Shown here one piece after another: positions 42,621 through 61,751 of a stretch of DNA of 64,000 nt; position 1 is the stretch's first letter, and the number at the start of each line of letters is the position of its first letter. The position numbers and the translations under genes were made by a program. The notes under the pieces were generated by a model. That model worked only from the letters and a program-made list of their open reading frames with translations. It was not told where the DNA came from and made no database searches. The DNA comes from Candidatus Cloacimonadota bacterium (lineage in GTDB: Bacteria; Cloacimonadota; Cloacimonadia; JGIOTU-2), in assembly GCA_049903315.1 (NCBI GenBank), contig JBNGBT010000001.1, forward strand, positions 160,001-224,000. Reading direction: 5' to 3'.

Positions 42621-43568
42621 ATGGAAAAAAAGACCTTAGTTGGTATAGTCATTCTTGTATTGCTGGTAAGTGCATTATATGCACAGGTTGCTACAACCAC
42701 AATTGAAAAGATTGAAGCAAATCCCGGATCTTATTTCGGAAAAGAAGTTACTGTTCTTGGTTTCATTGAACTGTATGTCGACTCACCAGGTGGCACATAT
42801 TATTATCTTTTAAAAGGCGATTACGGTGGTGTAATAAAAGTAAACTGTTCAAAACAAGAGGAAACTAAAAAGAAATATTATGTAACAGGTCTCGTGCAAA
42901 AAGATTTGAAAACAACCCAACCAATCATTGTTGAAACAAAGATCATTCCTGTAATACCGATACCTGCTGAAGAGGAACCAATCGTAGATTACACGTGGAT
43001 ATACTATGTCTTTGGTGGCTTAGTGATAGTCTTAATAATTCTCATAATTGTACAGTTTGCTATCAAGAAAAAAGGGAAGATGGAACAAACCCTTAGTACT
43101 TCTTCCGATAGCTTCTCTTCAGAACTAAAAGCTCCCCCAACAATGCCCAGTCAGAATACAATGCCCCGAACTTCATCCCAGTTCTCTACTATTAAAATAA
43201 CCAATGCTGTACCTAAAACAATGAGATTCATTCCCGGAAAATTAAAAATTGTATCAGATAGAGATAAGGGTAAAGAGTTCAGGATTGCTGGATACCCAAC
43301 ACCTAAGGGAAATATAGTTACTATAGGAAGAGAAGCAGTAAAAGGTGATAGAGAATTTGCACATATTCAGATTGATGAAAAGTTCGGAACTGTTTCCAGA
43401 AAACAAGCTGAATTCAGAGAAAAGGATGGTAAACTCTATATTAAGAATTTGAGTAGTACTAATCTCACTCAAATCAATGGAAAAGAGATTGCCGCTAATG
43501 AAATTGTTGAAGTGAAGTTTGGTGATGTCGTTCGAATGGGCGAGATCGAGTTCGAATATTCAATGTAA
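42621..43568 (+). CDS. Membrane protein: signal peptide, small extracytoplasmic (OB-like) domain, TM, cytoplasmic FHA domain
   Basis: GGAGG RBS; TM WIYYVFGGLVIVLIILIIVQF; FHA motifs VTIGR, VSRKQA, STN.T.ING. Confidence 0.85.
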   Translation: MEKKTLVGIVILVLLVSALYAQVATTTIEKIEANPGSYFGKEVTVLGFIELYVDSPGGTYYYLLKGDYGGVIKVNCSKQEETKKKYYVTGLVQKDLKTTQPIIVETKIIPVIPIPAEEEPIVDYTWIYYVFGGLVIVLIILIIVQFAIKKKGKMEQTLSTSSDSFSSELKAPPTMPSQNTMPRTSSQFSTIKITNAVPKTMRFIPGKLKIVSDRDKGKEFRIAGYPTPKGNIVTIGREAVKGDREFAHIQIDEKFGTVSRKQAEFREKDGKLYIKNLSSTNLTQINGKEIAANEIVEVKFGDVVRMGEIEFEYSM

Positions 43569-43603
43569 ATAACCAGCTTATCAACAAATATTTGGAGCAA
43601 AAA

Positions 43604-44905
43604 ATGAAAATCAATTCATTTGGGTGGACCTATGTCGGTAGAAGAGAGCAAAATCAGGATTCGATTTTGCTCTTGGAGATAGATAAGACACGTAATATAT
43701 ATTTTTACGCTGTTGCCGATGGAATGGGAGGAATGGGGGGCGGAGAAGTTGCCAGTGAAATAGTGACGCGAATTTGTAAGAATTATCTCGAAGAGATATT
43801 CAAAATACATGAAAATCTTAAACTGAAAGAAATTCTTAATGAAGTGATTATTGAGATCGACAATGAGATCCTCAGAACGACAGAGGAAGACAAAAGCCTT
43901 TCTGGCATGGGATCCACCCTTACATGTCTTTTGATAGCTGGGAAAAATTACGTAGTGGGAAATGTTGGGGATAGTAGAACCTATATTTTAGATGGAAAAA
44001 ATATTCATCAATTATCAGTTGATCATTCATATATAGAGGAATATAAGCAAAAATATAATGGACAGGTTGATGAAGCTATACAGAAGAAATACGGGCATAT
44101 TGTTACAAAATCTTTGAGTGGCGTTCATGATGAACCTGATATTTTCCCCAAAGAAAAAGATAGTTATTTACTTGGGGAAGGAACTGCTTTCATGTTATGC
44201 TCTGATGGACTGCTTGTTAATAAAAACAATAATACAACAGGCAATTTCATTCATAAAGTTTGCATTGGGACAAAAAATCCAAAAGAAGCTGTAGAATATC
44301 TTATTAAACTAGCCTATCATTCTGGCTCAACAGATAATATTTCTGTGATATTTGTAGAAATAGGAGAACTGGCCAGGAAAAAGAAAGCGGATCTTCCAAA
44401 ATCTTTCTTCGTTGATCAGGTTGTTTCCAAAGTAAAATTAAAGCCTGTAAAGAGGTTGAAAGTTATTAATTTTGCTTTTATTATTGTTATATTAGCTGGG
44501 ATACTTTTTATTGGGTATAAAATACTACCAACAAAAAGTTACATTAATAGGGAATATAATATTGGCAAAAGTGAATTAGAAACACCAGATACTTCTAAGA
44601 CTTACAACAAAATACAGAAATTAGAATTCGTAAAAATCGATGTTGGTGACGAAATAAATATTGATGTTGGTCGAATTTCTTGGGAATTTAGTGGAGGTAA
44701 AAATCTTGAATACACATTACAAATTGAAAAAGACAATTCAATAGTAATAACATATGAAACAGAAATGATAGAAATTGAAATTAATAAAGTTTTCGATAAA
44801 GATAAAGACATAAAAAGAGGAGAAAAGTACAATTTTATTATCAATGCTAATTCAAGTGATGGGCAAACAGAACAAGGAATCAAAAAGAATGTATTATTAA
44901 AATAA
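43604..44905 (+). CDS. PP2C/PPM Ser/Thr phosphatase with TM and C-terminal extracytoplasmic domain
   Basis: R..NQD, VADGMGG, MGST, NVGDSRTY, LCSDGL, DNIS. Confidence 0.93.
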   Translation: MKINSFGWTYVGRREQNQDSILLLEIDKTRNIYFYAVADGMGGMGGGEVASEIVTRICKNYLEEIFKIHENLKLKEILNEVIIEIDNEILRTTEEDKSLSGMGSTLTCLLIAGKNYVVGNVGDSRTYILDGKNIHQLSVDHSYIEEYKQKYNGQVDEAIQKKYGHIVTKSLSGVHDEPDIFPKEKDSYLLGEGTAFMLCSDGLLVNKNNNTTGNFIHKVCIGTKNPKEAVEYLIKLAYHSGSTDNISVIFVEIGELARKKKADLPKSFFVDQVVSKVKLKPVKRLKVINFAFIIVILAGILFIGYKILPTKSYINREYNIGKSELETPDTSKTYNKIQKLEFVKIDVGDEINIDVGRISWEFSGGKNLEYTLQIEKDNSIVITYETEMIEIEINKVFDKDKDIKRGEKYNFIINANSSDGQTEQGIKKNVLLK

Positions 44906-44921
44906 AAGAATTAGGAGAAGC

Positions 44922-47462
44922 ATGAAAAAATATATTTTATTACTACTTTGCATCTTTCTGGCATTTTGTAAAGGTTCTCAATACGAATTCAAGACGACAG
45001 AACTAAAGATTAAAAGGATAGAAATAACCCAGTTACCAGATCTTACATTATTTTACAAGTGTTTTGTGAATGGTGAAGCTATTGCTGAAGACGAAAACTG
45101 TATAAAGAGTACTAATATAAGCTGTAACGATCAGAATTTTACCATTGACGACATATCGCTTTATACTCCCAATCTTGATGTATATTATATAACCAACTAT
45201 CTCAGCAACACTTCAATTCTGAATTACGAATCATCATTAAATAAAATACACTCTCAGTATAAAATCTATAAAAATGATATCAATTCCCTTTCAGAAATAC
45301 CAATCATGAATGCAGAGGTTATTAATCTACAGACATATTGGAAAAAATGTAGTAATTTCTTTGATAATACGTTTTCTTTTCTGCAGACACTTGATGATCA
45401 ATACTCATACAAATTATTCATATTTTTCATATCCAAAAATACAGATGAAAACGAAATAGCGAACAGGAAGTATGTGGAGAACATACAACAGGTGATTAAT
45501 AAGCACCCTAATTGGGGATTTGGAATTTTCTATGAAAAAGGTTTTGCAGAACAGATCAAAAACTTCAATATAAGCATTCCAGATCAATGTTTCTTTATTA
45601 AAGAGCTTATTGATGTTGAATACAAAGGTTCACAAGCACAGGAAAAAGAAATCAATAGTGCTGTAAGTTTGATGATGAACTCAAACTACAAAATAGATCT
45701 AAGATTTGATAATGAATATATTGTAGATCCTAATAGAGAAACATATGAAATTATCCTTTCTTCAAATTATAAGAATATACTCCTTAGTGACAATTATAGT
45801 TGGCATCCTGCTCTGTCTTTAATCAAAGAATATTATATACAATATGTGGAAAATTCGATAGCTGTATATGAAGAAGATGAAAATTATCCAGCGATGCTTG
45901 GCATAATATGGGATGAATACAGTAAAACGAAGTTCCCAGAATTAAAACAATTAGCGGTTAGTAAAATCAGAGAATGGCTTGTTTCTAACGTTGATTTACT
46001 AGAAAATCAATCACAATCAGAATTACTATTTCAGAGTGGATTTGATGCTCTATATATTGCTGATAATGTCTGGGAACTAACAAGTATCTGGTATTTAGGT
46101 TTAAAAGAGAAATTTTTAGTTCTTTACGCAGCTTATCAAAAAAATCAAAATCATAATTATAATGAGCGCATAGAGATATATAATAAAATACTTACCATTA
46201 ATCCAGATAATAAGGAGATGGAATTTGATCTTAACGAATGCATTGCCGATCAATATTTAGATGCATCAAATTATCCTAATGCTTTAGAGTATCTGCAAAA
46301 AGCTGTTGATATAAATAACACATCGGAAATTCGGACAAAACTTAAAACAAATCTTAAAAGAATAATTACTTCAGATTTCCAAAACAGAAACTATGAAGAG
46401 CTTTATTACTTAGCGGAAAAGTACAACATCTATATTAATGATCCAAAGGAGGATTTTAGAAGTATTACATACTGGGCTATTGCAGCAAGGAATATACACA
46501 AATCAGATTCAGCACTTGCAAAATTTAACATTTTACTTGATAATTGGCACCAGAATGATGTATTAGACTACGATGATTTGTTGAAGTATATGTTTAATGT
46601 TTATGCCGAGAATATGGATTTTGAAGAAGCATATGAGTTATTAAAGCAAGTCAGCATGGATATACAGGAGGACGAGCTTTACAAGGTGCCCGATCTTTTA
46701 TGGGCAATTGTCTATCTACGTAGTGTTTATTTGGAACCATTCATAAATGTGGTAAATAGATATTTTATGAATAATGGTCTACACAATATACAACCACTTG
46801 CGATGGAGTATGCAGATACTGATTTATCTCAATATTTGGAAAATATGTATATCTTAAACTCTAATGGTAATCTTAAAACAAACATATATGGTTTAGAAGG
46901 GAATATTAAATTACCTACTCACCTTAATAGATATACAAAGAAATATATCGAAGATGATATTACGAACTGGTATATACAACCAATTAGTAATGGATATTTT
47001 GTTGTGCAAACCAGTAATAACCTTACTCCTTCTGAAGAAGTGTGGTATAGGGATCTGCAGAACAATTTCTCGGAACCAGCGATCTGGAATGAAGCGAAAG
47101 AGTTTTTTACGGATGAATCAAGGATAACCTTGATCAAACTTACTTCAGTAATTATTGGAAATGATGTCGTGTATAATGGTGTTCAAAATATTCCCACATA
47201 TAGTCAAGTATTAGGTGAGTTCCCGGATTATAAATATTTTGTTATTCAGAATTCAGTCGAGAAGATTATATATAATTTGAACTTCGATACTGGAGATGCA
47301 CTATATTTTAATAATGGTTGGGAATCATCAAGTCAATCCCCCCTTCTATACCGACAAGAAATTGAATATGGTTTTAATAAGACCAAGTTATTAGATATAG
47401 CTTACCCATATTTCAAGTCCGGAAACTGGCAAGGTGTAATACGCTACGGATTCAAAGAATAA
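44922..47462 (+). CDS. Large exported (probable lipo)protein with TPR-like helices
   Basis: MKKYILLLLCIFLAFC signal; Y..ALEYLQKAV.IN and YNKIL.INPDN TPR-like segments. Confidence 0.65.
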   Translation: MKKYILLLLCIFLAFCKGSQYEFKTTELKIKRIEITQLPDLTLFYKCFVNGEAIAEDENCIKSTNISCNDQNFTIDDISLYTPNLDVYYITNYLSNTSILNYESSLNKIHSQYKIYKNDINSLSEIPIMNAEVINLQTYWKKCSNFFDNTFSFLQTLDDQYSYKLFIFFISKNTDENEIANRKYVENIQQVINKHPNWGFGIFYEKGFAEQIKNFNISIPDQCFFIKELIDVEYKGSQAQEKEINSAVSLMMNSNYKIDLRFDNEYIVDPNRETYEIILSSNYKNILLSDNYSWHPALSLIKEYYIQYVENSIAVYEEDENYPAMLGIIWDEYSKTKFPELKQLAVSKIREWLVSNVDLLENQSQSELLFQSGFDALYIADNVWELTSIWYLGLKEKFLVLYAAYQKNQNHNYNERIEIYNKILTINPDNKEMEFDLNECIADQYLDASNYPNALEYLQKAVDINNTSEIRTKLKTNLKRIITSDFQNRNYEELYYLAEKYNIYINDPKEDFRSITYWAIAARNIHKSDSALAKFNILLDNWHQNDVLDYDDLLKYMFNVYAENMDFEEAYELLKQVSMDIQEDELYKVPDLLWAIVYLRSVYLEPFINVVNRYFMNNGLHNIQPLAMEYADTDLSQYLENMYILNSNGNLKTNIYGLEGNIKLPTHLNRYTKKYIEDDITNWYIQPISNGYFVVQTSNNLTPSEEVWYRDLQNNFSEPAIWNEAKEFFTDESRITLIKLTSVIIGNDVVYNGVQNIPTYSQVLGEFPDYKYFVIQNSVEKIIYNLNFDTGDALYFNNGWESSSQSPLLYRQEIEYGFNKTKLLDIAYPYFKSGNWQGVIRYGFKE

Positions 47463-47511
47463 CGTTCTACAGCTGCTGACATGAGTAATCAAACAAGAAA
47501 TTGGAGTTTAC

Positions 47512-49047
47512 GTGCTAGTAGAAAAATTTAAGGAATATTATGGTTCTAAGTACTCAATTGAAAACCAATTGCATCAGTCAAACATGTCTTATATATATAA
47601 AGGACTGAAACTTGATACTGGTGAACCTGTAGCTATTAAGATACAAAAGCCGCAGATGAACGATCCGGAGACCAGCAAAAAACGTTTTTTCCTCGAACCC
47701 GAACTGCTTAATCAGTTCAGCCATCCCAATATTGTAAAAGTGCGGGAGATGGAGGGCAACGGTGAGGTCAACTATTTCTCTCTTGAGTACATCAATGGAC
47801 TGGATTTGTTCAAAACGGTAAATACCCAAGGTATAATTCCATACGATAAAGGAATCGAGATCATTAAGCAGGTTAATTCTGCATTAAAACATGTACACAA
47901 GCTTGGTAAGGTCCACAGAGATATAAAAACTTCAAACATTATGGTTGATCAGAGTGGCAGAGCTGTGCTTATTGATTTTGGCATTGCCCTGGATCTTCAT
48001 GCAACAACACGTTTAACTATACATGGCGACATTTTTGGAACTCCTGAATATATGTCTCCGGAACAGGCACGGGGTGAAAGAGACATTGATAAGTCAACGG
48101 ATATTTATTCAATTGGTATAGTCTTGTATGAGATCTTTACCGGTAAAATTCCTTTCAGGTCTGATAATCAAATCCGGACAATTGAACTTATAAAAAATAT
48201 GGATCCTGAACCACCTAAAAAACATAATCCTTCCATACCAAAGCATATAAATAATACGATCATGAAATGCATTGCAAAAAATCCCGCTGATCGTTTTCAG
48301 CATATTGAGGATATCAGCGATGCGCTAGAATCTGATAAGATAGTCATTTCACACCAGGACGAAAAGATAAAAACAGCTCGAAAAGCAGATACAAGAGACA
48401 AGCCTGATACGAAGGCAACTATAACAAGCAGTGAGATCAAGATAAAACGCGCAATCAATGCAATTATTGGTATTATTGTACTTGCCATGGTAATTTTTCC
48501 TGTATTTTTCGTAAAAGATACTGTTTTAAGAATAATCATTCCTTTAATGATAATCATACTTGGTAGTATAATATACATGCTGTCCCCATTTTTCCCAAAG
48601 AAAGCATTCAGAAGAATGCCTACACAGCAACCGGGAAATATTCAAGGCAATTCTTTCAATGATTTCTTTGTTCCTTCTCTCCAGAGGAACAGCTCCCGCA
48701 TTCCGGGTACTTTTAAAATAATTGATGGTCCTGATAAAGGCAAATGTTTTACTGTTCCGGGAATCATTGAATCGGGATTAATTCGTTCGACTTTTGGAAG
48801 AGGAGGTATTGAGTATCCACTTTCCCTGGCACATATTAAAATATATGATAGGGAAGATCTGAGGATGATTTCACGGTACCAAATGGAATTATTTTACAAT
48901 AACCGTGATGTGATACTTCGTAATAAAAGCCAAAATACCCCCGTATGCATTAATGATGATATTCTTTATAGCGACCAACACAGTGTACTAAATGATGGGG
49001 ACATCATAGAAATCTCTAAGATAAAGCTAAGGTACAACAGTCTATAA
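47512..49047 (+). CDS. Hanks-type Ser/Thr kinase with two TM helices and C-terminal FHA domain
   Basis: VAIK, HRDIKTSN, DFG, GTPEYMSPEQ; FHA-like FGR, ISR, N..V.IN. Confidence 0.9.
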   Translation: MLVEKFKEYYGSKYSIENQLHQSNMSYIYKGLKLDTGEPVAIKIQKPQMNDPETSKKRFFLEPELLNQFSHPNIVKVREMEGNGEVNYFSLEYINGLDLFKTVNTQGIIPYDKGIEIIKQVNSALKHVHKLGKVHRDIKTSNIMVDQSGRAVLIDFGIALDLHATTRLTIHGDIFGTPEYMSPEQARGERDIDKSTDIYSIGIVLYEIFTGKIPFRSDNQIRTIELIKNMDPEPPKKHNPSIPKHINNTIMKCIAKNPADRFQHIEDISDALESDKIVISHQDEKIKTARKADTRDKPDTKATITSSEIKIKRAINAIIGIIVLAMVIFPVFFVKDTVLRIIIPLMIIILGSIIYMLSPFFPKKAFRRMPTQQPGNIQGNSFNDFFVPSLQRNSSRIPGTFKIIDGPDKGKCFTVPGIIESGLIRSTFGRGGIEYPLSLAHIKIYDREDLRMISRYQMELFYNNRDVILRNKSQNTPVCINDDILYSDQHSVLNDGDIIEISKIKLRYNSL

Positions 49048-49066
49048 ATTAAATTGATGAGGTGAC

Positions 49067-49774
49067 ATGGAAATATATATAGGTAAAAGCAGCGATAATG
49101 ATTATAGGATTGAAGATCCACATGTTTCAAGAAAACACTGTAAGATAATTATTCAGAGTGGCAGAATGTACATTATAGATCTGAATTCCACCAACGGAAC
49201 ATACCTTGATGGACAGAAGATCAATCCCAACGAAAAATATTATATTGATAGTCGTTCTGAAATTCTTCTTGCAGGGACCAAAAAAATTGATTGGAACGTG
49301 ATAACTCGATACATTCCTGATGAAAATAAGACAGTAAGGATAAGCGAACCTGTTCAATTTCCGCCGAAAAACCACAAGTTACCTGGAGAGCAGCACAGTC
49401 ATAAGCAGGAACTCAGAAATGAATATTCTAGAAATAAACGGGAGAGAACAAGTCGAGATAATAGACAGTATGATAATTATCAGAAAAGAGGTTTTAGAGA
49501 TGAAGTGAATTATGCAGTACATGCAGGAAAATCTTATGTAGGATCAGCATTTATCACACTTGCACTTTATTATGTAGGTCTTTGGTTAGGGGGAGTTATA
49601 TGCAATATTATATATTTAGGACAAGCAAAAAAAACAAAAGAAATAATTGGCTCTAGTCCATCAGGATATGGGTGTTTGATCTTTTTAATATGGACCCACT
49701 TGATAATTCCTATACTAGTCCTATTGTTTTTATTAATAACTGGTTCATCAATATTGGTTGGGATATTTAATTAA
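49067..49774 (+). CDS. FHA-domain membrane protein
   Basis: IGK...ND..I....VSRKH....DLNSTNGT; C-terminal TM segments. Confidence 0.88.
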   Translation: MEIYIGKSSDNDYRIEDPHVSRKHCKIIIQSGRMYIIDLNSTNGTYLDGQKINPNEKYYIDSRSEILLAGTKKIDWNVITRYIPDENKTVRISEPVQFPPKNHKLPGEQHSHKQELRNEYSRNKRERTSRDNRQYDNYQKRGFRDEVNYAVHAGKSYVGSAFITLALYYVGLWLGGVICNIIYLGQAKKTKEIIGSSPSGYGCLIFLIWTHLIIPILVLLFLLITGSSILVGIFN

Positions 49775-50007
49775 TGAAATTAATAATTCTGTTCATGATA
49801 AAAATATATAGATTTATATATCATCCCATCAAACAAGGATTCCGTGATGCGGGGATCGAACTGAATAAATGCCAGTTTACACCGACCTGCTCGGAATATG
49901 CAATTATAGCACTAAACAAGTACCCTATAAAAAGAGCACTAAAGAAAATAATAAACCGCCTGAAGCGGTGCAGTTTTACCACGATTAATCAGATAGATTA
50001 CCCTTAA
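49774..50007 (+). CDS. yidD: YidD-like (membrane protein insertion efficiency factor family) protein
   Basis: IKIYR, CQFTPTCSEYA..A..KY, RLKRC; 77 aa. Confidence 0.8.
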   Translation: MKLIILFMIKIYRFIYHPIKQGFRDAGIELNKCQFTPTCSEYAIIALNKYPIKRALKKIINRLKRCSFTTINQIDYP

Positions 50008-50021
50008 AGATTGAGGTTTAC

Positions 50022-53000
50022 ATGCCAGAAACCAAACAGTGTCCATTTTGCTATGCAGAGATCCCAATCCATGCTCAAAAATGCCAGCATTGCGGAGAGT
50101 GGCTTTCTGATGAACATACACTTGGTCATACTACAATAATCTCGGCTTTTTCGTCCGAGTATGAGATAATAGAGGAAATCGGGCGCGGCGGCATGTCCAC
50201 GGTGTATAAAGCTCGCTATAAAAGATTGAATCGAATAGTTGCACTAAAAGTCATACCCAAAGCATTATCACATGATAAAGAGTATATCCAGCGGCTACAT
50301 CATGAAGCCAGAAATTCGGCACTTCTTATGCACGCTAACATTATTACTATTTTTGATGTTGGAGAAATGGGAGGATATCCTTTTATTTCAATGGAATATC
50401 TTGGTGGAAACACGCTTGCAAAATTAATCCGGGAGAAAGGACCTTTGCCCGAACAAAAAATCAAAGAGATCATTATACCTATTCTAGACGGACTACAACA
50501 TGCCCATTCAAAAGGAATAATACATCGAGATATTAAAAGTTCTAACATTATGTTCGATGAAACGGGAAGACCTGTATTGATGGATTTTGGGATTGCTAAG
50601 AGTAGTGAGGGGACTAAACTGACTCAAGCTGGAACTATTATAGGCACACCTGAGTTTATGAGTCCAGAGCAAGCTAATGCCGATGTTGATATAGATCACA
50701 GAACTGATATCTATTCTTTAGGTATCGTAATGTATGAAATGGCTACAGGAAGGCTGCCCTTCTTGAACGAAAATCCCTTTGCTGTTGTACATGATGTGTT
50801 GCATAAGCTACCATATGATCCAAGATTAATAAACAATTCAGTCTCTCTCTTTTTATCGAATGTCATCGGAAAAGCTGTCAATAAAGATCCTAAAAGAAGA
50901 TTCAAAACCTGTGGGGAGATGATACAAGTATTTGAAAAGACAAAAAAATATACCTTTACAAATGCCGATGTTGTATTTCGTGAAAAGAACAAAGTTAAGA
51001 AAACATCAAAAAAGGATTCAATCCAGATACCGAAAAGACTGATCTCAAATTTTATTATTATTGTTGGTATCCTATTGATTTTAATTATTGGATATATAGG
51101 CTATAATCATTTCTTTCCTTTAACCTCTATTCCAAGGGTGACCGGGCTTGATTATAAAGTTGGGATTATGCGTTTAAAATCTAATGGCTTTAGGCCTAAA
51201 GTAAGTAAATGGAAAAAAACGACAGATAAAAATAAATATGGGCTCATTTCGAATCAAATTCCACAAAATGGAGAGAAACGAAAAGGATCGAGTGTATATA
51301 TAGAGGTTTATAGAAAATACGTCTCAATTCCCAAACTTGATAACTTGTCAGCAAATCAAGCTACTGCTTCTCTTAAATCATTAGGTTTGAAAATAAGTAA
51401 GGTTAAATATTATTGGCATCCTACTATTCCAAAAGGTACTGCAATTGGGGTAGAAACTTCACAAAAAGAGCTTCCGGAGGGATCCACAGTTGTACTTAAG
51501 GTTTCAAATGGCGTAAAAAAAGAGCAGATACCAGATGTCATTGGTGACTCATATGTTAAAGCAAAGCGAGCTTTGCAAGAGCTAGGTTTTGTTATTAATG
51601 ATGTTAAAAGAATTGAAGATAAAAACGAGGATAAGGGTGATATAGTTCTCGGTATACAACCACAGTCTGGAGAATACCCCAGGGGTACAAAAATCGACCT
51701 TGTTCTTTCAAAAAAGATGGTAAAAGTACCTATCCTTAAGAAGCTCGATCTTGAAGTTGCGAAGAAGAAACTTGAGAAAGCCGGGCTTGACACGGGTTCT
51801 GTCACAAAGAAAATAAGTGATATTAATGAAAAGAATATAGTTATTTCTTATGAACCTAACGGAAGGGTCGCTTCCGGTTCAAAGGTGGATATGGTTATCA
51901 CATATGAGATGGTAAGTCTACCAGATCTCTCGGGACAGAACTATGAAACTGCAAAAAATAGATTACGAGGTCTTGGGCTTTATGCTTCAAAATCTCAGTA
52001 TGTAAAATCTGTATATGATGAACCTAATATAGTAGTTAGAACTAATCCTGGACCGGGTAGAGTGATCGAGGGAAGCACAATAGAATTATATCTCTCAGCT
52101 GCAATGGTAAATGTGCCTAATGTAGTGGGTCTCACATTATCGGAAGGAATGAATAAATTAGAGGGTGCAGGACTTCCTGTCGAAATGGGAGAGTATATAA
52201 AAAGTTATTCATATCCAGATGGCACTATTGCAGCTCAGTCAATACAGAATCAAAGGGTAATAACCGGCACAACCGTTAAACTGGATATATATAAGAAATA
52301 TGTTAAAATTCCGTATGTCCGAGGGCTAACACAAGATGAAGGTATTGATAAGATTCGTCAAGAGGGTTTGGATGTAACCGCAACAAAATTGACTTATGAT
52401 AATTCAATACCGATTAATCATGTTATAGGAATAGAAGGTCAAAAGGAAGAACTTCCAGACGGTTCAAAGATAGTAATTCTTGTTTCAAGAGGAGAAAAAA
52501 AAGAGGTTTATGTTGATGGTAAAACATTTACTATGGGAAATACAGATTTGAATGCTGCTAATGATGAGAAGCCAACCCATATTGTGTATCTTGGTGATTT
52601 CAATATTTGGAAGTATGAAATAACTAATCTGGAAGTTGCTACGATTTTTAACTGGGTTATGGATGAAAATCATCTTACTCATAACAATGGTAAATTATAT
52701 TCTATCGAAAATAAAACCCAATATTTAATTGATCTCAATGATAAAGATTGTAGATTAAAACTAGAGGGGAAAAATATCGCAGTAGAAGCAGGATTCGAAG
52801 ATCACCCTTGCGTAGAAATCACTCATTTTGGAGCTGCCGCATTCTGTAATTATTTAAGTATTCATGATGGCTTGAATCCATGTTATGATTTAACTAAGAC
52901 ACATTCTTGTAGATGGGATGAGAATGGGTATCGTCTTCCAACTGAAGCAGAATGGGAGTGTGCTGCTAAGATGGCTGAAAAAAATTCAACTACTCAACTA

Positions 53001-53336: not shown

Positions 53337-53346
53337 AAGGTGCTAC

Positions 53347-53597
53347 ATGGAAATTTTTCTAAAAATTATATTAAGTCTAATATTGGGAAACTGTATTATC
53401 CTAATTTCATGCACAAATGATCTAGTGGACTTTTCAGAGTTACAAATCCTGGACCAGCAGATACATGCGCCCTACAAAAAGATACCGGAGTATTCAGAAC
53501 AATATTTACCACACTATCCTTTGCTGCTATCGATGATACTGCGATAAGAATTATGTTATTGAACGATCTAATAAATTGGTTAATTAATGAAAAATAA
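53347..53597 (+). pseudogene. Internally deleted lipoprotein gene remnant
   Basis: Lipobox LISC at the start; from about 53421 a different frame reads ...CALQKDTGVFRTIFTTLSFAAIDDTAIRIMLLNDLINWLINEK*, a protein-like C-terminus. Confidence 0.55.
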
Positions 53598-53625
53598 TAA
53601 AAAAAAATTACTTTTGGAGGATCTC

Positions 53626-55557
53626 ATGAAAAAAATAATAATTGTTATTTTAATAGTATTAAATTTTGCACTACTGAAAGCAGAAACGGTCATTTTAAAA
53701 AACGATGAATCAATATATGGTAAGTTAGTAGGCAAGGCTGATAACATGATTTATTTAGAGTTAAACTATGCTAATGTTAAAATCCCATGGTCAAATATTA
53801 AACAAATTGATGGTTTTGCAGGTGAAATTACGAATGTTACATATAATAAAAAAGATTTTTTTAGGAGCGATCTTGATAAAGGCGAGTTCATTATGCTGGG
53901 TGAAATGTCTAAGCTCGAAAGGAATAAAGTCTGGGACACATCCATCTTTGGAAAAGAAAATTATATAAATGTTAAATTTAAAGTCAATGTAAAAGACTAT
54001 TATGTGAAAGTCAATGATAATGATCCACTCTTAATCAAGGAAAATTCGTTTGAAACCTTACTTAATAAAGACATTCCATATGTATTTAATTTTTACAAAG
54101 ATCGTTATGAAGATCATTATAAAGTAGTTACCTTAAATAAAGATGCAACAAAAGAAATACTTCTTAATTTCAATGGCGTTGAAAAACATTTCAATCTTCC
54201 CGGATATGTAACCATAGATTCATATCCTGAAAAGTCAATGATATATATTGATAATATTAAAATGGGATTTGCTCCCAAACAACTGCAAGTCACTTCAGGT
54301 GAGCATGCTCTAACCCTTCAAAAAGACTGGTATCAGCTTAAAAGACAGAAAATTATCGTAAAAGAGAAACAGACTTTGGATATTGGTACAGTTACTCTAA
54401 TTGAGGACTTTGGATATTTCTCAGTGACAACTGAACCCGAGGGAGCTGAAATACATTTAAACGATAAATATGTTGGATTGTCTCCTATTACAGAAAAGAA
54501 ATTAATTAGCGGTAATTATACAATTTCAGCTTTCTTAGACGATTATCATCCTAAAATTATAGCAATGACCCTGAAACGGTATGATGATATAACAATTCCT
54601 ATTGGTTTGGAACCAGCTTTTGGAAAACTTATCATAAAATCAACTTCCGTAAGCGATGCGTCCGTTTATATCAATGACGAATTAGTAGGTAAGACACCGT
54701 ACAATGATGTAAAATTTCCATCTGGCAAATATCTTATCAGCGTTGAAAAAGATAATTGGTTTGGAGAAGAGAGGGAAGTTGTAATAAAGGATGGTTGTAC
54801 AACAGAAGAGACTTTTAATCTATTTAAAAATTTCGGGAGAATTAGCGTTAATGCTCCTGGTTGTCAGATATATCTCGATGATGAGCTAATCGGCACTAAT
54901 TCTGTAGTTAAGGATGTCAAATCTGGTGATTATATTCTCAGAGCAACAAAAAAGGATCACTATGATGACAGTAAAGAGATTTCGATAGAAGCGAATGAAT
55001 CAAAGGAAATTCAGCTAAATCCACTTCCTATAATAGCGAGTCTTGATATACGAAGTGAACCTTATGCAACCAAGGGGGCGACTATCAAAATAGATGATAA
55101 AAACTGGCCTGAAGGAACACCTACAATAATAGAAACAACAATTGGGCAGCATAAAGTAAGTGTCAGTTATCCGGAATATATTACCCAAACGAAGAAGGTC
55201 GACTTGCAAAAAGGGGATTATAAGGAGTTGTTATTCAATATGACACTCTATAAAAACAGCGCAACATACAAATGGAAAAAATGGCGTACTTGGAAATGGT
55301 TATATTTTACTACAACTATAGTATGTTTGGGCACTGGCGGTGGATGTCATTATCTTGGAGAGCAAAATTACGACAAATATACTCATGCGACATCATCAAG
55401 TATAGCAGCAGTATATAAAGACAATTATGAAAAATGGTATAAATACAGAGATTACTCTTTTAAGATATCTATAGCTCCAGCCGTATTGTTCTTGTATAGT
55501 TGGATTAAAGAAGGCTATTATGCAGGAAAAGCTAAACATGAGATGGGAGATCAATAA
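53626..55557 (+). CDS. PEGA-repeat protein
   Basis: GGAGG RBS; signal peptide; repeated (S/T).P.GA.I.ID...G.TP......G.H/Y units. Confidence 0.88.
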   Translation: MKKIIIVILIVLNFALLKAETVILKNDESIYGKLVGKADNMIYLELNYANVKIPWSNIKQIDGFAGEITNVTYNKKDFFRSDLDKGEFIMLGEMSKLERNKVWDTSIFGKENYINVKFKVNVKDYYVKVNDNDPLLIKENSFETLLNKDIPYVFNFYKDRYEDHYKVVTLNKDATKEILLNFNGVEKHFNLPGYVTIDSYPEKSMIYIDNIKMGFAPKQLQVTSGEHALTLQKDWYQLKRQKIIVKEKQTLDIGTVTLIEDFGYFSVTTEPEGAEIHLNDKYVGLSPITEKKLISGNYTISAFLDDYHPKIIAMTLKRYDDITIPIGLEPAFGKLIIKSTSVSDASVYINDELVGKTPYNDVKFPSGKYLISVEKDNWFGEEREVVIKDGCTTEETFNLFKNFGRISVNAPGCQIYLDDELIGTNSVVKDVKSGDYILRATKKDHYDDSKEISIEANESKEIQLNPLPIIASLDIRSEPYATKGATIKIDDKNWPEGTPTIIETTIGQHKVSVSYPEYITQTKKVDLQKGDYKELLFNMTLYKNSATYKWKKWRTWKWLYFTTTIVCLGTGGGCHYLGEQNYDKYTHATSSSIAAVYKDNYEKWYKYRDYSFKISIAPAVLFLYSWIKEGYYAGKAKHEMGDQ

Positions 55558-57611
55558 TGAGAAATAAAATATATCTTGTAGTAATATGCATTATTGTAAG
55601 TATTATCATAACTTGTAAATCAACAACACCTTCGAATCCCTATGATCCCGGGTTTGATTTACCAGCTCCTACTAATTTTTCAGTTGAACAGACTGGTATT
55701 ACAACGACATCATTAACTTGGACTGATAACGCAGAAGGAGAGCAAGGTTATAAGATAGACAGGAAAGTAGATAATGGGTCATGGGTTATCGGGTACGCGC
55801 AAGTTGGAGAAAATATCCTGCAAATCAATGATTTGGGATTAACCCCAGAAGAAACATATTCATATCGTATTTATACCTATGCTGGAGAAAACACATCAAC
55901 TAGTCAGGAACAATCAATCGAACTTGACTTCCCGAATCCAAGTAACTTTACTATTAACCAGGATGACGTACATTCATTTATTCTCAAATGGAACTATTCA
56001 TCAACATGGCCAGAAGGTTATAAAATTGACCGCAAGATCGACAGCGGAAGTTGGGAAAATGAATTGGTAGCTCTGGATGTAAATACGAAACAATGGACTG
56101 ATAACAGCATTGGAAGGTCATATAATATAGTGTATTACCGGGTGTATGCTTATTATTTAGACTATATTTCAAAGAAAATTGAAGTAAACAGCGACATAGA
56201 TTTTCCCCCACCCTCTTCTCTAACAATTAATCAAACTAATCCAACAACCTGCAAACTTGAATGGCAAGATAACTCAAGCGGAGAACAGGGTTTCTATATT
56301 GATAGAAAGATAAATGATGGTTCGTGGATTTTGGATTATGCAACAGTCGGAGAAAACATAGAGATCTATACTAATTCGGGTTTGATTCCTGACAATACTT
56401 ATTCGTATAGAGTATGTGCTTACTATGGAGACAACAATACACCAGGGGTTGAAGAAAGTATCTCAATAGTTTTTTATGCCCCGACTAATTTATCTATTGA
56501 ACAAACTGGTGATACATCATGTAAATTAACCTGGGATGACAATTCAAGTGGTGAACAAGGTTTTAAGATAGATAGAAAGGTGAATAGTGGTTCGTGGAGT
56601 TACCATGCACAGGTTGGAGGTAATGTTGAAGAACATTCTGCAACAGGTTTAACAGCAGGAAATTCTTACACATACAGAGTATATGCATATTATCAAAGCG
56701 TTGAAACTGATTGTTCGAATGAAGTAAATATAGATTTAGATGAGCCGTTAGGTTCTCTGTCAGGTTATGTACGTGAAGCAATTACCCAAAATCCAATACA
56801 AGGTGCACATGTTGAAATTGGAAGTTGGTCAGCTATTACGAATTTAAATGGTTATTATTTGATTACAGATATTACACCAGGTTCCTATACTGTAGTATGC
56901 TCAGCACGTTACTATATATCACAATCAGAAACGGTTGAAGTAAATGGGGGAGAAACTGCTTCTCAAAATTTCATTCTCTCTTACAGTACTGAGATTTTGT
57001 CATATTATTATGCAGTCGAAGATGCCATCGGTTTAATTAACGGTGGAACGATGATTGTTGCTGTAAGGTTTACTTCAGATGAACTTGCAGATTATTATGA
57101 AAACTTTTGTATTAAACAGGTAGCTTTGTATATCTGGGATTTACCTACTTATGCTGTTTTAAAGATATGGGAAGGGGGTAATTATGGTAATCCTGGGTCG
57201 GTAGTTTATTCTGAGAATATTACAAGTCAGTTGTCACAAGAAAGTTGGATTGGGGTTAACCTTTCAGAGTTAATTGATCTTGTATCACAAAAGGAATATT
57301 GGGTAGGTTACGAAGTTATACACGAAGCGGATATTCATCCAGCGGGATCTGATATAGGTCCAGTGGTAGATGGAAAAGGTGACTGGATTTATATTAATGA
57401 TACATGGGATGAACTCCAAAATTACGGTTTCGAATTTAACTGGGCAATTAAAGCTATACTCATGGGGAATGCTGACAAAAACAACAATGAGTGTATTACA
57501 AAAAATTATAGTATTGAAATTATTAATAATGGCAGAAAAAAGAAAAACACAAATCAATTCAGTTCGAAAAAACAGGAAGATCTTAAATATGAGCTCTTAA
57601 ATAACAAATAA
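55557..57611 (+). CDS. FN3-repeat lipoprotein with carboxypeptidase-regulatory-like and C-terminal beta-sandwich domains
   Basis: IITC..NPYDP; four L.W.DN..GE.G..IDRK...Y.YRVYAY repeats; GSLSGYV...PI.GA.V. Confidence 0.85.
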   Translation: MRNKIYLVVICIIVSIIITCKSTTPSNPYDPGFDLPAPTNFSVEQTGITTTSLTWTDNAEGEQGYKIDRKVDNGSWVIGYAQVGENILQINDLGLTPEETYSYRIYTYAGENTSTSQEQSIELDFPNPSNFTINQDDVHSFILKWNYSSTWPEGYKIDRKIDSGSWENELVALDVNTKQWTDNSIGRSYNIVYYRVYAYYLDYISKKIEVNSDIDFPPPSSLTINQTNPTTCKLEWQDNSSGEQGFYIDRKINDGSWILDYATVGENIEIYTNSGLIPDNTYSYRVCAYYGDNNTPGVEESISIVFYAPTNLSIEQTGDTSCKLTWDDNSSGEQGFKIDRKVNSGSWSYHAQVGGNVEEHSATGLTAGNSYTYRVYAYYQSVETDCSNEVNIDLDEPLGSLSGYVREAITQNPIQGAHVEIGSWSAITNLNGYYLITDITPGSYTVVCSARYYISQSETVEVNGGETASQNFILSYSTEILSYYYAVEDAIGLINGGTMIVAVRFTSDELADYYENFCIKQVALYIWDLPTYAVLKIWEGGNYGNPGSVVYSENITSQLSQESWIGVNLSELIDLVSQKEYWVGYEVIHEADIHPAGSDIGPVVDGKGDWIYINDTWDELQNYGFEFNWAIKAILMGNADKNNNECITKNYSIEIINNGRKKKNTNQFSSKKQEDLKYELLNNK

Positions 57612-57620
57612 GGATTGACC

Positions 57621-59762
57621 ATGAACATTTTTAAATATCTGATTGTTTTATTATTGGTGAATATTTTATTTTTAGCAAAATGCACCACCCCCGAAACCAC
57701 AAATCCCTATGATCCTGGCTATGAGTTGCCAGCTCCAAGCAATTTTGATATTGCGCAGGAAACACTAACCTCCTGTGCCCTTACCTGGACTGATAATGCA
57801 GAAGGAGAGGAAGGATATAGGATAGAGAGAAAATCAGAGCAACGTAAGATATCTACTCAAAAAGGAAAATGTGAGACTAAAGGAGATTGGGAAAGATTAG
57901 TAGAATTAGATCCTAACACAGAACAGTTCCCGGATGAAGATGTGATGCCGGGTTATACCTATATCTACAGAGTGTATGCCTTTGCAGGGGAGAATGAATC
58001 CAATAAGCTTGAGAAAGAATTTATAGTTCAGTTCAATGCACCTAGTGGATTTAATGTTAAGCAGACAAGTCTTAGCTCATGTAAACTAAACTGGAATGAC
58101 AATTCTGAAGGAGAGTATGGCTTTATTATTGATAGAAAAGTAGATGGTGGATTCTGGGAAATAGGTTATGCAGATGTAGAAGAGAATATTAACGAATTTG
58201 ATGATACAGAGGTTTTACCTGAATCAATTTATACATATCGTATATATGGTTTTATCGAAGGGGCTACCTCGAGTAAGATAGAAAGTTCAGCAGAAATTAT
58301 ATTTGCAGAACCTACAGACCTATATATCTCACAGGATAATGTGCACACCTTTATCTTAACCTGGAACTATCCAACGGACTGGCCAGAAGGATACAAGATA
58401 GATAGAAAGATAGATGATGGAGAATGGGAGCAAGAGATAGGGCTGGTTAATGATGTATTAATAACTTTATGGGCTGATGATACTGTTGGAAGAAACTACA
58501 CTACGGTTTATTATAGGATGTATGCATACTGGAATGATTATACCTCAAACAAAGTTGAAGGTAATAGTAACATAGAGTTTGATGCTCCTACGAATTTAAA
58601 TTATGACAAGGTAACAATAAATTCAATAAAACTATCCTGGCAAGATAACAGTGATGGAGAGAGTGGATTTAAGATAGACAAAAAGGTTGGGGCTTCTAGT
58701 TGGGTAGAGGAATATGGTGAAGTAAGTGAGAATGATACTACCTGGACAGATATTGATGTAGAGGTCAATGAGGATTTACAGTATAGTGTATATGCCTATT
58801 GTGGAGATAACACATCTAATTCGATAGAGACTGATCTGATAGATAATACGATCCCAGCACCCGAAAACTTATCCTATGAAATCGAGAATGGTAATGATGT
58901 TCATTTGTATTGGGAATATACAACGTCTGGTATAGACGGATTTACATTAGAGCGGAAAGTTGATGATGAGTCCTGGGCTATGTTAGTAAATAATCTCTCT
59001 CCTGATTTGCGAGAATATCTTGATGAGGAGATTAGTATGGAAGATCATTATTCCTATAGAGTATTAGCATATTATGGTAATTATGAACCTTCTTATTCTA
59101 TAGAAATAGTGGTTAATTCTATTCCAACAAATGGACTAGTAGCATATTATCCTTTTAACGGTAATGCAAATGATGAAAGCGGGAATGGTCATAATGGTGA
59201 TTCCCAACCAAATGTTGATTTTTCAGCTGTCGATAGATTTGGAAACTCTAATAGTGCTATCTACATTGGTTCAAGTTATATCACTATTCCTGAAAATGTT
59301 GATTTAAATCTTCAAAGTCATACTATTTCAGCTTGGTCAAAATTCGAAAATGGGCATACAGGTTCTTTGGGAGGGATTTTCAATAACGGTTACAATTATG
59401 ATCATTATGCATTATGTGGAAACAATAGTCTTATTAGATCTTGGATAAATTATCCCAATAGTCCTGATGATGAACATATTTTCAATACAACAATTTTGGA
59501 AGATGAAGAATACCATCATTTGGCAGCAACTTATAATTTTGAGATTAGAACCTTATGGATAGATGGAAATTTAGTAAGTACCATGGTTTTCAATGAAACA
59601 ATTAATTATTCAAATAGTGAAAATTGTTATATTGGAATTAATTTTCCTGGAGGTGATGATTGGTTTCCTGGTTATTTAGACGACATTCGTATATACAATC
59701 GAGCCTTAACTGAACAAGAGATTCAGTCCTTATACCATGAAGGTGGTTGGGGATATAAATAG
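57621..59762 (+). CDS. FN3-repeat lipoprotein with C-terminal LamG domain
   Basis: LAKC..NPYDP; five FN3 repeats; GLVAYYPFNGNAND...LDDIRIYNRAL. Confidence 0.85.
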   Translation: MNIFKYLIVLLLVNILFLAKCTTPETTNPYDPGYELPAPSNFDIAQETLTSCALTWTDNAEGEEGYRIERKSEQRKISTQKGKCETKGDWERLVELDPNTEQFPDEDVMPGYTYIYRVYAFAGENESNKLEKEFIVQFNAPSGFNVKQTSLSSCKLNWNDNSEGEYGFIIDRKVDGGFWEIGYADVEENINEFDDTEVLPESIYTYRIYGFIEGATSSKIESSAEIIFAEPTDLYISQDNVHTFILTWNYPTDWPEGYKIDRKIDDGEWEQEIGLVNDVLITLWADDTVGRNYTTVYYRMYAYWNDYTSNKVEGNSNIEFDAPTNLNYDKVTINSIKLSWQDNSDGESGFKIDKKVGASSWVEEYGEVSENDTTWTDIDVEVNEDLQYSVYAYCGDNTSNSIETDLIDNTIPAPENLSYEIENGNDVHLYWEYTTSGIDGFTLERKVDDESWAMLVNNLSPDLREYLDEEISMEDHYSYRVLAYYGNYEPSYSIEIVVNSIPTNGLVAYYPFNGNANDESGNGHNGDSQPNVDFSAVDRFGNSNSAIYIGSSYITIPENVDLNLQSHTISAWSKFENGHTGSLGGIFNNGYNYDHYALCGNNSLIRSWINYPNSPDDEHIFNTTILEDEEYHHLAATYNFEIRTLWIDGNLVSTMVFNETINYSNSENCYIGINFPGGDDWFPGYLDDIRIYNRALTEQEIQSLYHEGGWGYK

Positions 59763-59771
59763 GAGATACTC

Positions 59772-61751
59772 ATGATTCATAATACTATGAAACAGAAATT
59801 ATTGTTAGCTTATATTTCTTTCGTTTTTATTTTAGTAAATTGTTCTCTTTTTGCTCAAAGCTCAATGCATATATGGGATCAGAACGACGGGAGTCTTAGT
59901 GATGGTGCAATCCATGGACAGGTTTGGTCAAACATTGGAGGACCAATCAAAGATGCACTTGTTTTTGTATCCAATCCAGAACTTTCACATCTCTATGGTG
60001 ATGATGTGAGTGCTGGTGGTGATAATTGGGGTGATTATTGGGTAGGGCCTCTCCCTTCAAATACTAATCTAGTAGTCTTTGCATATCATCTAGAAAGACC
60101 ATTTATTCTTAAATCAGAAGAATTTAATTTAAATTATAATGAAAATCGCGAAATAGAGTTGGATCTATCAATAGATTATACAGATCCAGGTTTTATCACT
60201 ATGAATAGTGATTTCGTTAATTATGGAAATGGGGGGGTATTACACTTAGCAGGTTTTATTTTAAGAATGATAACATTACTTCAACAATCTCAAAATAATA
60301 CTACAGCTCAAGCTATTATTGAACAGTTAGAATCATTGCAAACAAATAATCAAACGTCGTATGCAAATCCTACCCTCGGTTTCATCCTCGACTCATCAGG
60401 GAGCATGAGTGATAATGATCTGAATGATATTAGAAAAACTGCACTGATCAATATTATCAAAGATAGACTAACGGGAAATGAACAGGTACATATTGTGGAT
60501 TTTGACTCAGATGCCCATGTCTGTAATAGTAAAATATCAGGTTGGTCTAAAGATGAGCTCATAAGCGCTGCAAAGACGATCGACTCATCCGGTGGTACCA
60601 ATGTAGAAGCAGGACTGGACGTCATGAGTGCGTCACTCACAAAGAGTGGTTTTTCAAATAATACAGGAGTGATGTTATTAACTGACGGAAAGGGGGAATA
60701 CAAAGACGCAGCACAGTGGTATATGAATAAGGGGATAAAGGTTTATACCGTAAGCTTTGTGGGAGATGCCGATGAGGTACTTCTCAGGAATATCGCTCAC
60801 CAGACAGGTGGTATTTACATGCGCGCTGATACCGCAGACCAGATATGCAATCTTTTTAATCTGTTTTACGATCTTCTCACTGGGAGCAGTATGTTTGCCT
60901 TTCATCAGGATCTTATCCATCAGGGTGATGTGCTTGATTATTATTTCCCAATTGATAATGTTGAAGGAGATCTGTATTTTGCTACAAACTGGTCAGGGAG
61001 CAAAGTCGATATGAAAATAATCTCACCGTCAGGTAATGTGTATACCGTAAATGATGGTAAGGGTTCATGGAATATTGGTGATAATTATGCTACAGCTTCG
61101 ATCCCATCCAAAGAGATCGGTAATTGGGAAGTACAGTTAATAGGTTCGCAGATACCCCAGCAGGGTGAAGAGGTAAGTCTCGAGGTGCATGGTAAATCTG
61201 ATCTCCTGTTCAATATTGACATGAACACTCATCAGGGATTTGTTGATTTTACTATAGTCAGCGCAATGCAACATCTTGTAGGGAATTATTCCGCAAATGT
61301 CACAGTAAAAACACCAAATGGAAAAGTGCTAGATATCTCAGATAAATTAAATGGGAACAAGCTGAACTATTTTCCAATTTCGGGCAAAGGAAGTTATCAG
61401 TTCAGTTTTCATATCCAGGGCAGCAGAAACGATGGTACTAAATTCCAGAGACAACTTACACGCTACTATTTTGCTGGGGAGCATGCAATACCATACATAT
61501 CACCAATTACATATATTCTCGGTAATTGTGTATATGCTGATATAGGTAAGGTCGTAGGTAACTCACCAGGTATAAAATGTTATATATATCGAGGTGATGT
61601 GAATAATTATCAAAATTGCATCGCAGAAGGTTATGTAATCAACTGTAAAGATCTTGAATGTACTGCTGAGATCGATTATTATCTTCAAAATACAAAAGCT
61701 CAGGTCGGTGATATCCTTAAGCTTGATGAGGATGACTGGAGAGCTGATTGA
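59772..61751 (+). CDS. Exported von Willebrand factor A domain protein
   Basis: Signal peptide; MIDAS LDSSGSM, GGTN, LLTDG, IA..TGG. Confidence 0.88.
   Translation: MIHNTMKQKLLLAYISFVFILVNCSLFAQSSMHIWDQNDGSLSDGAIHGQVWSNIGGPIKDALVFVSNPELSHLYGDDVSAGGDNWGDYWVGPLPSNTNLVVFAYHLERPFILKSEEFNLNYNENREIELDLSIDYTDPGFITMNSDFVNYGNGGVLHLAGFILRMITLLQQSQNNTTAQAIIEQLESLQTNNQTSYANPTLGFILDSSGSMSDNDLNDIRKTALINIIKDRLTGNEQVHIVDFDSDAHVCNSKISGWSKDELISAAKTIDSSGGTNVEAGLDVMSASLTKSGFSNNTGVMLLTDGKGEYKDAAQWYMNKGIKVYTVSFVGDADEVLLRNIAHQTGGIYMRADTADQICNLFNLFYDLLTGSSMFAFHQDLIHQGDVLDYYFPIDNVEGDLYFATNWSGSKVDMKIISPSGNVYTVNDGKGSWNIGDNYATASIPSKEIGNWEVQLIGSQIPQQGEEVSLEVHGKSDLLFNIDMNTHQGFVDFTIVSAMQHLVGNYSANVTVKTPNGKVLDISDKLNGNKLNYFPISGKGSYQFSFHIQGSRNDGTKFQRQLTRYYFAGEHAIPYISPITYILGNCVYADIGKVVGNSPGIKCYIYRGDVNNYQNCIAEGYVINCKDLECTAEIDYYLQNTKAQVGDILKLDEDDWRAD

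Follow-up and report, generated by a model that had tools for sequence, protein, structure and literature searches.

A three-part OB-TM-FHA adaptor, PP2C, and membrane kinase unit in an acquired island of a Cloacimonadota genome

To our knowledge, most bacterial sets of Ser/Thr kinases, PP2C phosphatases, and FHA proteins have no assigned output besides the firing of type VI secretion systems (T6SSs) and Gram-positive cell wall control. What such a set might do elsewhere is the question raised by a run of 11 genes (g1 to g11, numbered by order, positions 42621 to 61751) in a 64,000-nucleotide window of DNA from a Candidatus Cloacimonadota bacterium. This window, by which we mean the whole stretch analyzed, corresponds to positions 160001-224000 of contig C11 in the source genome (G000; 2.96 Mb, 96.4% complete), whose MurA protein clusters with named members from Cloacimonadota. 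We find that the conserved unit is smaller than 11 genes and has three parts: an adaptor composed of a predicted exported OB fold, a transmembrane (TM) segment, and an FHA domain (OB-TM-FHA); a PP2C phosphatase; and a membrane kinase.

The gene run and its conserved core

The original prediction described a tightly packed, co-oriented run, and all 11 open reading frames (ORFs) are indeed found on the forward strand in the predicted order, separated by -1 to 49 bp with one exception of 289 bp located 3′ of g7. The domain set is likewise borne out by Pfam matches to FHA, PP2C, two Pkinase, YidD, seven PASTA repeats plus FGE-sulfatase, PEGA, fn3 (two genes), and VWA. The third of three proposed FHA domains is less clear, given that those of g1 and g5 pass the Pfam cut-off while that of g4 falls just below it (E = 0.0011). 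Among all matches in the genome, the block holds two of three Pkinase, both FHA, and the sole PP2C_2. Contigs from four sequencing runs in four studies cover positions 39000-58990 with no listed difference, each of which may be the source of the assembly, and the DNA repeats in this region reflect FN3 and kinase paralogy.

To define the conserved unit, we collected 39 metagenome and 9 genome loci from scans, and left out 10 that carried generic FHA genes or were too partial and 5 with less than 500 bp of downstream sequence. In the 33 remaining loci, a PP2C gene adjoins the adaptor gene 29 times. After merging near-copies and adding loci from genomes G434 and G774, this adjacency holds in 23 of 26 cases; of the other three, two have a kinase gene next instead. 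A kinase lies within 5 kb of the adaptor in 13 of the 15 loci with at least 5 kb of downstream sequence. Phylogenetic trees, built without near-duplicate loci, contain a branch with 100/97 support that separates 19 linked kinases from 14 other kinases. The corresponding split of 25 linked PP2Cs from 13 others has 89/88 support, which is below the support mark. Thus, the proposal of a membrane-tethered writer, eraser, and reader set is supported and extends to other genomes, but the larger combination that had been viewed as a single apparatus (FHA, PP2C, kinase, YidD, PEGA, FN3, and vWA) does not survive the neighborhood comparison, in which only adaptor, PP2C, and kinase recur widely.

Carriers of the unit are scattered among Cloacimonadota, Bacteroidota, and Ignavibacteriota, including records titled Ignavibacteria and Bacteroidales. 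One archaeal and one actinobacterial bin also appear among them and may be misbinned; locus L047, of the type found in the Fibrobacterota-Chlorobiota-Bacteroidota (FCB) group, resides in a bin titled Pacearchaeota that is probably misbinned. The marker gene, g1, is rare, being found in 1 of 232, 2 of 301, 1 of 167, 2 of 301, and 1 of 77 genomes in five sets that each include the seed genome and contain many incomplete assemblies. The first of these counts refers to the phylum Cloacimonadota, and the gene is present in none of 10 genomes of the genus. Neither an OB-TM-FHA protein nor an adaptor/PP2C/kinase unit is described in the literature that we searched, although the supplements of PMC7159879 and PMC11341870, which were outside this search, could list such loci.

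The adaptor gene g1 (42621-43568) had been annotated as TM-FHA. This assignment holds, but the protein additionally has a signal peptide and, in its exported part, a predicted OB fold (residues 22-112), followed by the TM segment, conserved Thr motifs (T190 and T200), and the FHA domain. A word-indexed search recovered 27 other homologs, and a profile search recovered 260 clusters (50% identity) at E ≤ 1e-30, where most of the 150 listed cover the whole profile. For the ectodomain, 111 homologs were aligned, chosen as unfused and near full length, and the structural model (pLDDT 95.6) adopts an OB fold. Its best structural match is an MCM N-domain (Z 14.3, root-mean-square deviation [rmsd] 1.6 over 87 residues); the match to YgiW is not the best (Z 11.5, rmsd 2.1, 80 residues, 25% identity). 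No Pfam model fits the ectodomain well, no BOF match is present among the 25 of 97 families listed (112 members), and the ESM Atlas returned only leads below 0.9 from OB-like clusters.

Among 95 sequences, at least 90% retain G236, R237, S259, and N281, which we take to be the phosphothreonine-binding positions of the FHA domain, and the same holds for T190 and T200. From 168 adaptor proteins, of which 126 have the pre-FHA anchor, a T-[IVLM]-x-[IVLFM] motif precedes the FHA domain in 122 of 126, compared to 5 of 125 in a control window. This T-x-x-hydrophobic pattern matches the pT+3 preference of FHA domains. A similar motif occurs at the end of five of nine PP2Cs that lack a TM helix, compared to 1 of 14 PP2Cs that have one, but the five TM-less examples count as one event because all belong to one clade. 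Complex prediction with the PP2C domain and the cytoplasmic part of g1 gave a score of 0.01.

Several departures from the typical adaptor were observed. Variant P0123 is fused behind an FtsX domain, locus L022 (4002-6305) includes an FHA-FHA-ABC transporter, and a protein of the same FHA clade in L024 (1068-2339) has a multi-TM region in place of the OB fold.

The PP2C encoded by g2 (43592-44905), which has a TM segment and a small fn3-like ectodomain, retains its metal-binding motifs. Both kinases have intact catalytic motifs (VAIK lysine, HRD, DFG, and GTP-E), and g4 (47512-49047) differs in that its glycine loop is without its glycines; this protein continues with a TM hairpin and an FHA domain related to that of g1. 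The kinase encoded by g7 (50022-53336) begins with a Zn ribbon and carries, after its TM segment, seven PASTA repeats and an FGE/CLec domain (FGE match at E 1.6e-40), which lacks the two-Cys FGE motif. Its best solved structural match is TvpA. We considered whether a retroelement acts on this FGE/CLec domain and rejected the idea, given that no RVT_1 match was found in G000 and the last 240 nucleotides of g7 are not repeated.

Between these genes lies g3 (44922-47462), previously described as a TPR-like lipoprotein. All TPR matches are below the cut-off and the lipoprotein cysteine is absent in two of three homologs, such that the description holds only in part. The protein is exported and has no TM segment, and its model contains an N-terminal part (residues 1-294) with pLDDT below 50, a solenoid of TPR helices, and a predicted Cache/PAS-like C-terminal domain that was not previously recognized and that aligns to WalK, CHASE4, and other Cache/PAS sensors (Z 8.0-8.5). 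Foldseek gave no match to the model at E ≤ 0.001, the ESM Atlas gave no usable match for the N-terminal part, and two database searches yielded a single other protein; distant homologs came instead from the collected loci. Gene g5 (49067-49774) encodes an FHA domain, a linker with a T-V-R-I motif, and two hydrophobic segments rather than the single one proposed.

Variable receptors, cargo, and the acquired island

The linked kinases mostly start with a Zn ribbon and end with PASTA, FGE, TPR, WD40, PEGA, or Fib_succ_major domains. In its anatomy, the unit comprises an eraser, a reader that crosses the membrane, and a receptor kinase whose binding head is exchangeable. Genes downstream of the core are mostly exported and include FGE, PEGA, CsgG, caspase, WD40, vWA, and beta-barrel proteins; in none of the annotated loci does the core come with a gene for a transcription factor or an enzyme as output. 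The closest parallel to the run is L006, in which the order is g1-g2-g3-kinase-g4-g5-g6-g7. Gene g3 occurs in four other loci (L006, L021, L049, and partly L032), g11-type vWA genes in two (L054 and L053, 35-37% identity), and PEGA genes in a few, while YidD and g5 recur solely in L006.

A gene for the T6SS-associated protein TssR follows the core in L025, L026, and L028, which are near-copies, and in L095. The last of these belongs to genome G434, where the core is directly followed by a stretch (L095:2931-18274) encoding a Calx-beta adhesin with a type IX secretion system tail, a beta-barrel protein, a TssP-like TM-PKD protein, TssR, a TssR-N protein, and an ABC pair, after which come housekeeping genes. 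The cargo shares several components with the T6SS sensing and anchoring kit, namely FGE domains, vWA, TssR, TM-PKD, and, in G434, the ABC pair. G434 has no TssC or Hcp match, and the same TssC search was positive in 16 of 121 genomes of that Bacteroidota order. We also considered g11 as a TssR-like protein, and discarded this assignment when pairwise comparison with the L095 TssR revealed no significant similarity.

In the window, g6 (49774-50007) encodes a YidD-family paralog, which is the second YidD copy in the genome; a stronger match resides on contig C70. Within the only long gap of the run (53337-53625) is a gene fragment that shares 60% identity across 52 residues with a protein encoded on contig C2. 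It is followed by the exported PEGA-repeat protein g8 (53587-55557, likely start at 53626), two fn3-repeat lipoprotein-like proteins, g9 with a CarboxypepD_reg domain (55557-57611) and g10 with Laminin_G_3 (57615-59762), both of which have closer paralogs on other contigs of G000, and the exported vWA protein g11 (59772-61751), which carries a DxSxS motif (D207-S211).

The AT-richer block noted in the original prediction is real, but it extends past both of the proposed ends. It is a horizontally acquired insertion of approximately 26.5 kb (C11:200440-226990; 40441-64000 in the window, with about 3 kb beyond the window end) and has its own sigma54 two-component activator. Its GC content is 33.6%, compared to 39.0% for the rest of the contig. 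The insertion sits between a carbamate kinase gene and a threonine-synthase-like gene, which are 26.5 kb apart in G000. Among the carbamate kinase loci of nine relatives, the threonine-synthase-like gene is directly next in four (G217, G219, G213, and G229) and different neighbors are present in the other five, and no island gene occurs in any of the nine loci examined. The island starts with a divergent lipoprotein-like gene (40476-41537, reverse strand; Big_7 and Laminin_G_3, with the LamG part 34% identical to g10). At the other end are a shortened receiver and sigma54-activator gene (61856-62695), a gene for an 866-amino acid membrane histidine kinase whose 5′ part (62760-64000) is in the window, and, beyond the window, an intact receiver-AAA-HTH sigma54 activator (C11:225357-226763). 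The shortened gene is 69% identical to this intact copy 3.5 kb downstream.

The predicted consensus sigma54 promoter is present as an exact TGGCAC-N5-TTGCA element on the forward strand (42006-42021), 600 bp 5′ of g1. Between them is an ORF of 83 amino acids (42135-42386, forward strand, 22.6% GC) that has no family match and is possibly a remnant. Base shuffling of the 1,083-bp intergenic region produced an exact site in 13 of 20,000 trials, and the genome has 12 exact sites in total, including 4 in intergenic DNA. At one mismatch, three motifs are found in the window versus 1.73 expected, which is not above chance; one site at this level is oriented divergently (41572-41587, reverse strand), 35 bp before the LamG gene. 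Three palindromic boxes of the TGTTGCA-N4-TGCAACA type, which are candidate activator sites (41763, 41824, and 41969, spanning 41763-41986), lie between the two sigma54-like sites. Two of them are among only four copies genome-wide with at most one mismatch, and the third has two mismatches. A -24/-12 consensus, a linked activator, and upstream palindromes are present here, the genome encodes RpoN, and the element with its boxes is a credible candidate promoter. We rejected sigma54 control as a trait of the family, given that the exact site is upstream in none of 22 other loci and a weak variant is present in one.

A 15-codon remnant matching the C terminus of g11 follows the shortened activator gene (61856-62743 for both), which suggests that two related vWA-regulator segments were once joined by duplication and deletion.

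Other features of the window and of related genomes were also observed. Upstream of the insertion (36955-40440) are what we take to be two tandem carbamoyltransferase-like genes and the carbamate kinase gene, after xanthine-dehydrogenase-like and selenate-reductase-like (YgfK) genes. Positions 9754-28406 presumably encode a cluster of large exported proteins with similar C-terminal sorting tails, among them peptidases similar to the gingipain/C25 type, a kelch protein, and an agmatine-deiminase-like protein. The lowest GC content of the genome (down to 28.6%) is found at C44:5000-71000 and is below that of the island. The same contig (C44:114566-120088, reverse strand) encodes a protein of about 1,840 amino acids with an N-terminal Hanks kinase domain that occurs in most relatives searched and represents the native Ser/Thr kinase of the group. 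A type II/IV ATPase pair on C70 is unlinked to the island. In G213, a member of the same genus, nine kinase matches (L081-L084) include many Zn-ribbon kinase-PEGA-FGE receptors of a different kinase clade, and its kinase-FGE/PEGA, PP2C, and FHA loci are separate and without the OB-TM-FHA adaptor.

A proposed trans-envelope switch and its alternatives

We see an even chance that the unit serves as a local trans-envelope switch, which would sense contact or envelope damage and position exported surface proteins, with phosphorylation of T190 clustering the adaptor. In G000, the two-component pair of the island would probably activate the operon via sigma54. A ligand, a partner such as g3 or g8-g11, or envelope damage might then cause the kinase ectodomain (PASTA, FGE/CLec) to dimerize, as described for TagQ/TagR-PpkA. 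The kinase would autophosphorylate and also phosphorylate the T-x-x-hydrophobic motif of g1 at T190, and contacts between FHA domains and phosphothreonines among g1, g4, g5, and the kinase could create a cluster at the inner membrane. In this cluster, the assembled OB domains might offer a docking patch on the periplasmic side to surface or adhesion proteins encoded in the same locus, and the PP2C would reset the switch. Because no T6SS core was found in G000 and no DNA-binding output accompanies the unit, its output is likely to be local and post-translational. According to the accessible text of PMC6370654, outer-membrane proteins and peptides are ligands of exported OB proteins, which makes the docking step plausible but does not show it.

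A bolder and more speculative proposal, which we consider unlikely as it stands, is that the OB-TM-FHA protein is a transmembrane phospho-adaptor that relays a phosphothreonine signal outward over the inner membrane and thereby creates a docking patch for interchangeable surface machines, such as adhesins, TssR/TssP-like anchors, vWA proteins, and Cache proteins. The unit would then be a sister of the T6SS tit-for-tat pathway that has no weapon and serves contact sensing and adhesion in FCB bacteria. If the adaptor does relay outward, it would show how the T6SS sensing kit is put to use in adhesion or contact. For its part, g3 would be a Cache-type sensor without a membrane or cytoplasmic part that signals through protein contact to a Ser/Thr kinase. 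The specific marker gene, the conserved candidate phosphorylation site, and a core of three proteins amenable to in vitro reconstitution make it possible to test directly what such switches do without a T6SS.

Several observations weigh against the local switch. The core in L048 is flanked by unrelated genes with no downstream cargo, and cargo varies between loci, such that these genes may be mere island neighbors. A single apparatus is also disfavored by the restriction of YidD and g5 to L006, by the status of g6 as a second YidD copy, and by the g9 and g10 paralogs on other contigs. L011 has no kinase within 5.8 kb of the adaptor. Support for the PP2C grouping does not reach the mark, and the trees used few outgroups, only those at hand, which include the PP2C near the VipB gene of genome G235 but no PpkA or PknB reference. 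The OB fold alone reveals no ligand, its top structural matches being nucleic acid-binding OB domains, and the g3 model on which the Cache assignment is based is weak overall (pLDDT 60). Finally, g7 passes the PknB/Stk1 model NF033483 (503 bits versus a cut-off of 450), which also fits a general cell wall sensor.

This last point leads to the alternative that survives best, a possible though less probable one, in which the unit is a general envelope sensor like PknB/Stk1 whose cytoplasmic substrates are encoded elsewhere (division, wall synthesis, or metabolism), and the island, rich in lipoproteins, carries the surface genes as unrelated passengers. Consistent with this, g7 has seven PASTA repeats, most of the genome's matches to the three signaling families are concentrated in the island, and the FN3 lipoproteins have paralogs elsewhere. 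In addition, the actinobacterial fhaA/fhaB-pstP-pknA-pknB arrangement given in the available part of PMC6554272 has its counterpart here in the order TM-FHA, PP2C-TM, kinase, PASTA kinase. However, the island is without rodA or pbpA, and the rarity of the marker in the phylum and its absence from the genus set are unlike a housekeeping regulator. PASTA repeats are also absent from most linked kinases, and in some distant genomes the core is again accompanied by g3 or by the g11-type vWA.

It is improbable, in our view, that the unit is a defense or conflict module of the KKP/PD-T4-6 type, in which attack would tip the kinase/phosphatase balance and toxic kinase activity would halt the cell. 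Patchy horizontal spread would suit such a module, as would the resemblance of the g4 kinase-FHA fusion to PfkB in the accessible text of PMC11341870 and the occurrence of FGE/CLec, PEGA, and PASTA domains in MoxR-vWA conflict systems in that of PMC7159879. Both kinases also match PADLOC PD-T4-6 models, but these matches come from the two kinases only, with none from the other 10 proteins, and we do not take them as evidence of defense, reading them instead as generic kinase-domain matches. Furthermore, genes for a kinase-CSD, MoxR, a nuclease, or an integrase are absent from the island, as are prophage genes. Neither a reverse transcriptase nor a template repeat was found, and enhancer-dependent sigma54 control would be unlike a constitutive defense cassette. 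From the original suggestion of a sensing, adhesion, or conflict apparatus, the first two roles fit the evidence, and the third is without any supporting effector gene.

That the unit is the regulatory arm of a T6SS located outside the window is very improbable. In favor of it, the unit shares its three classes of enzymes and readers with PpkA/PppA/Fha1, TssR is found after the core in the four loci named above (of which L025 and L028 could not be followed past TssR), and genome G235 has a VipB gene. However, no VipB, TssC, Hcp, or sheath gene was found in G000, housekeeping DNA follows the island, and the TssC search matched no control genome and 16 of 121 Bacteroidota genomes without matching G434. 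In G235, the VipB gene lies on a different contig, where FHA and PP2C genes of its own accompany it, the latter outside the linked PP2C group.

Comparison with known systems

The local switch that we favor is best judged beside systems that use similar parts. In the H1-T6SS of Pseudomonas aeruginosa, as described in the accessible part of PMC13713981, membrane damage causes TagQ and TagR to form a complex, TagR is modeled to dimerize PpkA through its FGE domain, and Fha1 is the sole phosphorylation target of PpkA. Like this threonine pathway, the unit unites an inner-membrane Hanks kinase, a PP2C, and an FHA protein in one locus, places an FGE-family domain on the sensing side (g7, by its Pfam match), and has lipoprotein-like partners and, in G434, ABC partners. 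In contrast to it, the FHA protein here is membrane-anchored with an exported OB fold, the FGE domain varies by locus between a kinase fusion and a free-standing form, and the island has no ABC pair similar to TagS/TagT, as is present in the G434 locus. The absence of T6SS genes, part of the original prediction, holds for VipB, TssC, Hcp, and sheath genes in G000, and that of division genes holds for rodA and pbpA in the insertion. Scores with the TagH model (20.6-38.8 bits versus a cut-off of 120) and the FhaB model (27.9-48.7 bits versus 125) are below the cut-offs.

The membrane complex of the Bacteroidota T6SS-iii offers a second comparison. In the available text of PMC10781749, which describes the TssN/Q/O/P/R complex, TssR and TM-PKD proteins belong to this complex, and these same proteins follow the core in some of our Bacteroidota loci, but they are absent from the window. 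The adaptor is similar to the periplasmic OB proteins YgiW and SipA (PMC6370654, in its accessible part) in having an exported OB fold, here a predicted one, but differs from YgiW in that the fold is tethered via a TM helix to an FHA domain.

KKP modules, as far as the accessible text of PMC11341870 describes them, resemble the run in having a PP2C gene followed by two kinase genes, one of which is FHA-fused (here g4), and in their horizontal spread. Unlike these modules, the run has no kinase-CSD and no adjacent triplet of 900-1300-bp genes, given that g3 intervenes and the kinase genes are 1.5 and 3.3 kb. All parts of the run are membrane-bound or exported, and no prophage genes were found.

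A vWA protein near a kinase and a phosphatase also recalls other architectures. The TerY-P triad consists of a cytoplasmic TerY-vWA protein beside a PP2C and a kinase, whereas g11 has an N-terminal hydrophobic signal and is 15 kb from the PP2C gene. The MoxR-vWA ternary systems presented in the accessible part of PMC7159879 differ in that the only AAA+ domains of the island are those of its sigma54 activators, with no MoxR.

The actinobacterial fhaA-fhaB-pstP-rodA-pbpA-pknA-pknB cluster (PMC6554272, in the part available) is the closest in layout, with a membrane FHA gene directly 5′ of a membrane PP2C gene and then two kinase genes, one encoding PASTA repeats. Our unit differs from it by being accessory and rare rather than phylum-wide, and by its association with surface cargo instead of wall enzymes such as those of rodA and pbpA. 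The unit is therefore a member of neither the T6SS threonine pathway nor the actinobacterial cluster, and is likewise distinct from KKP and MoxR-vWA systems; it would work like the T6SS threonine pathway and is laid out like the fhaB-pstP-pkn cluster.

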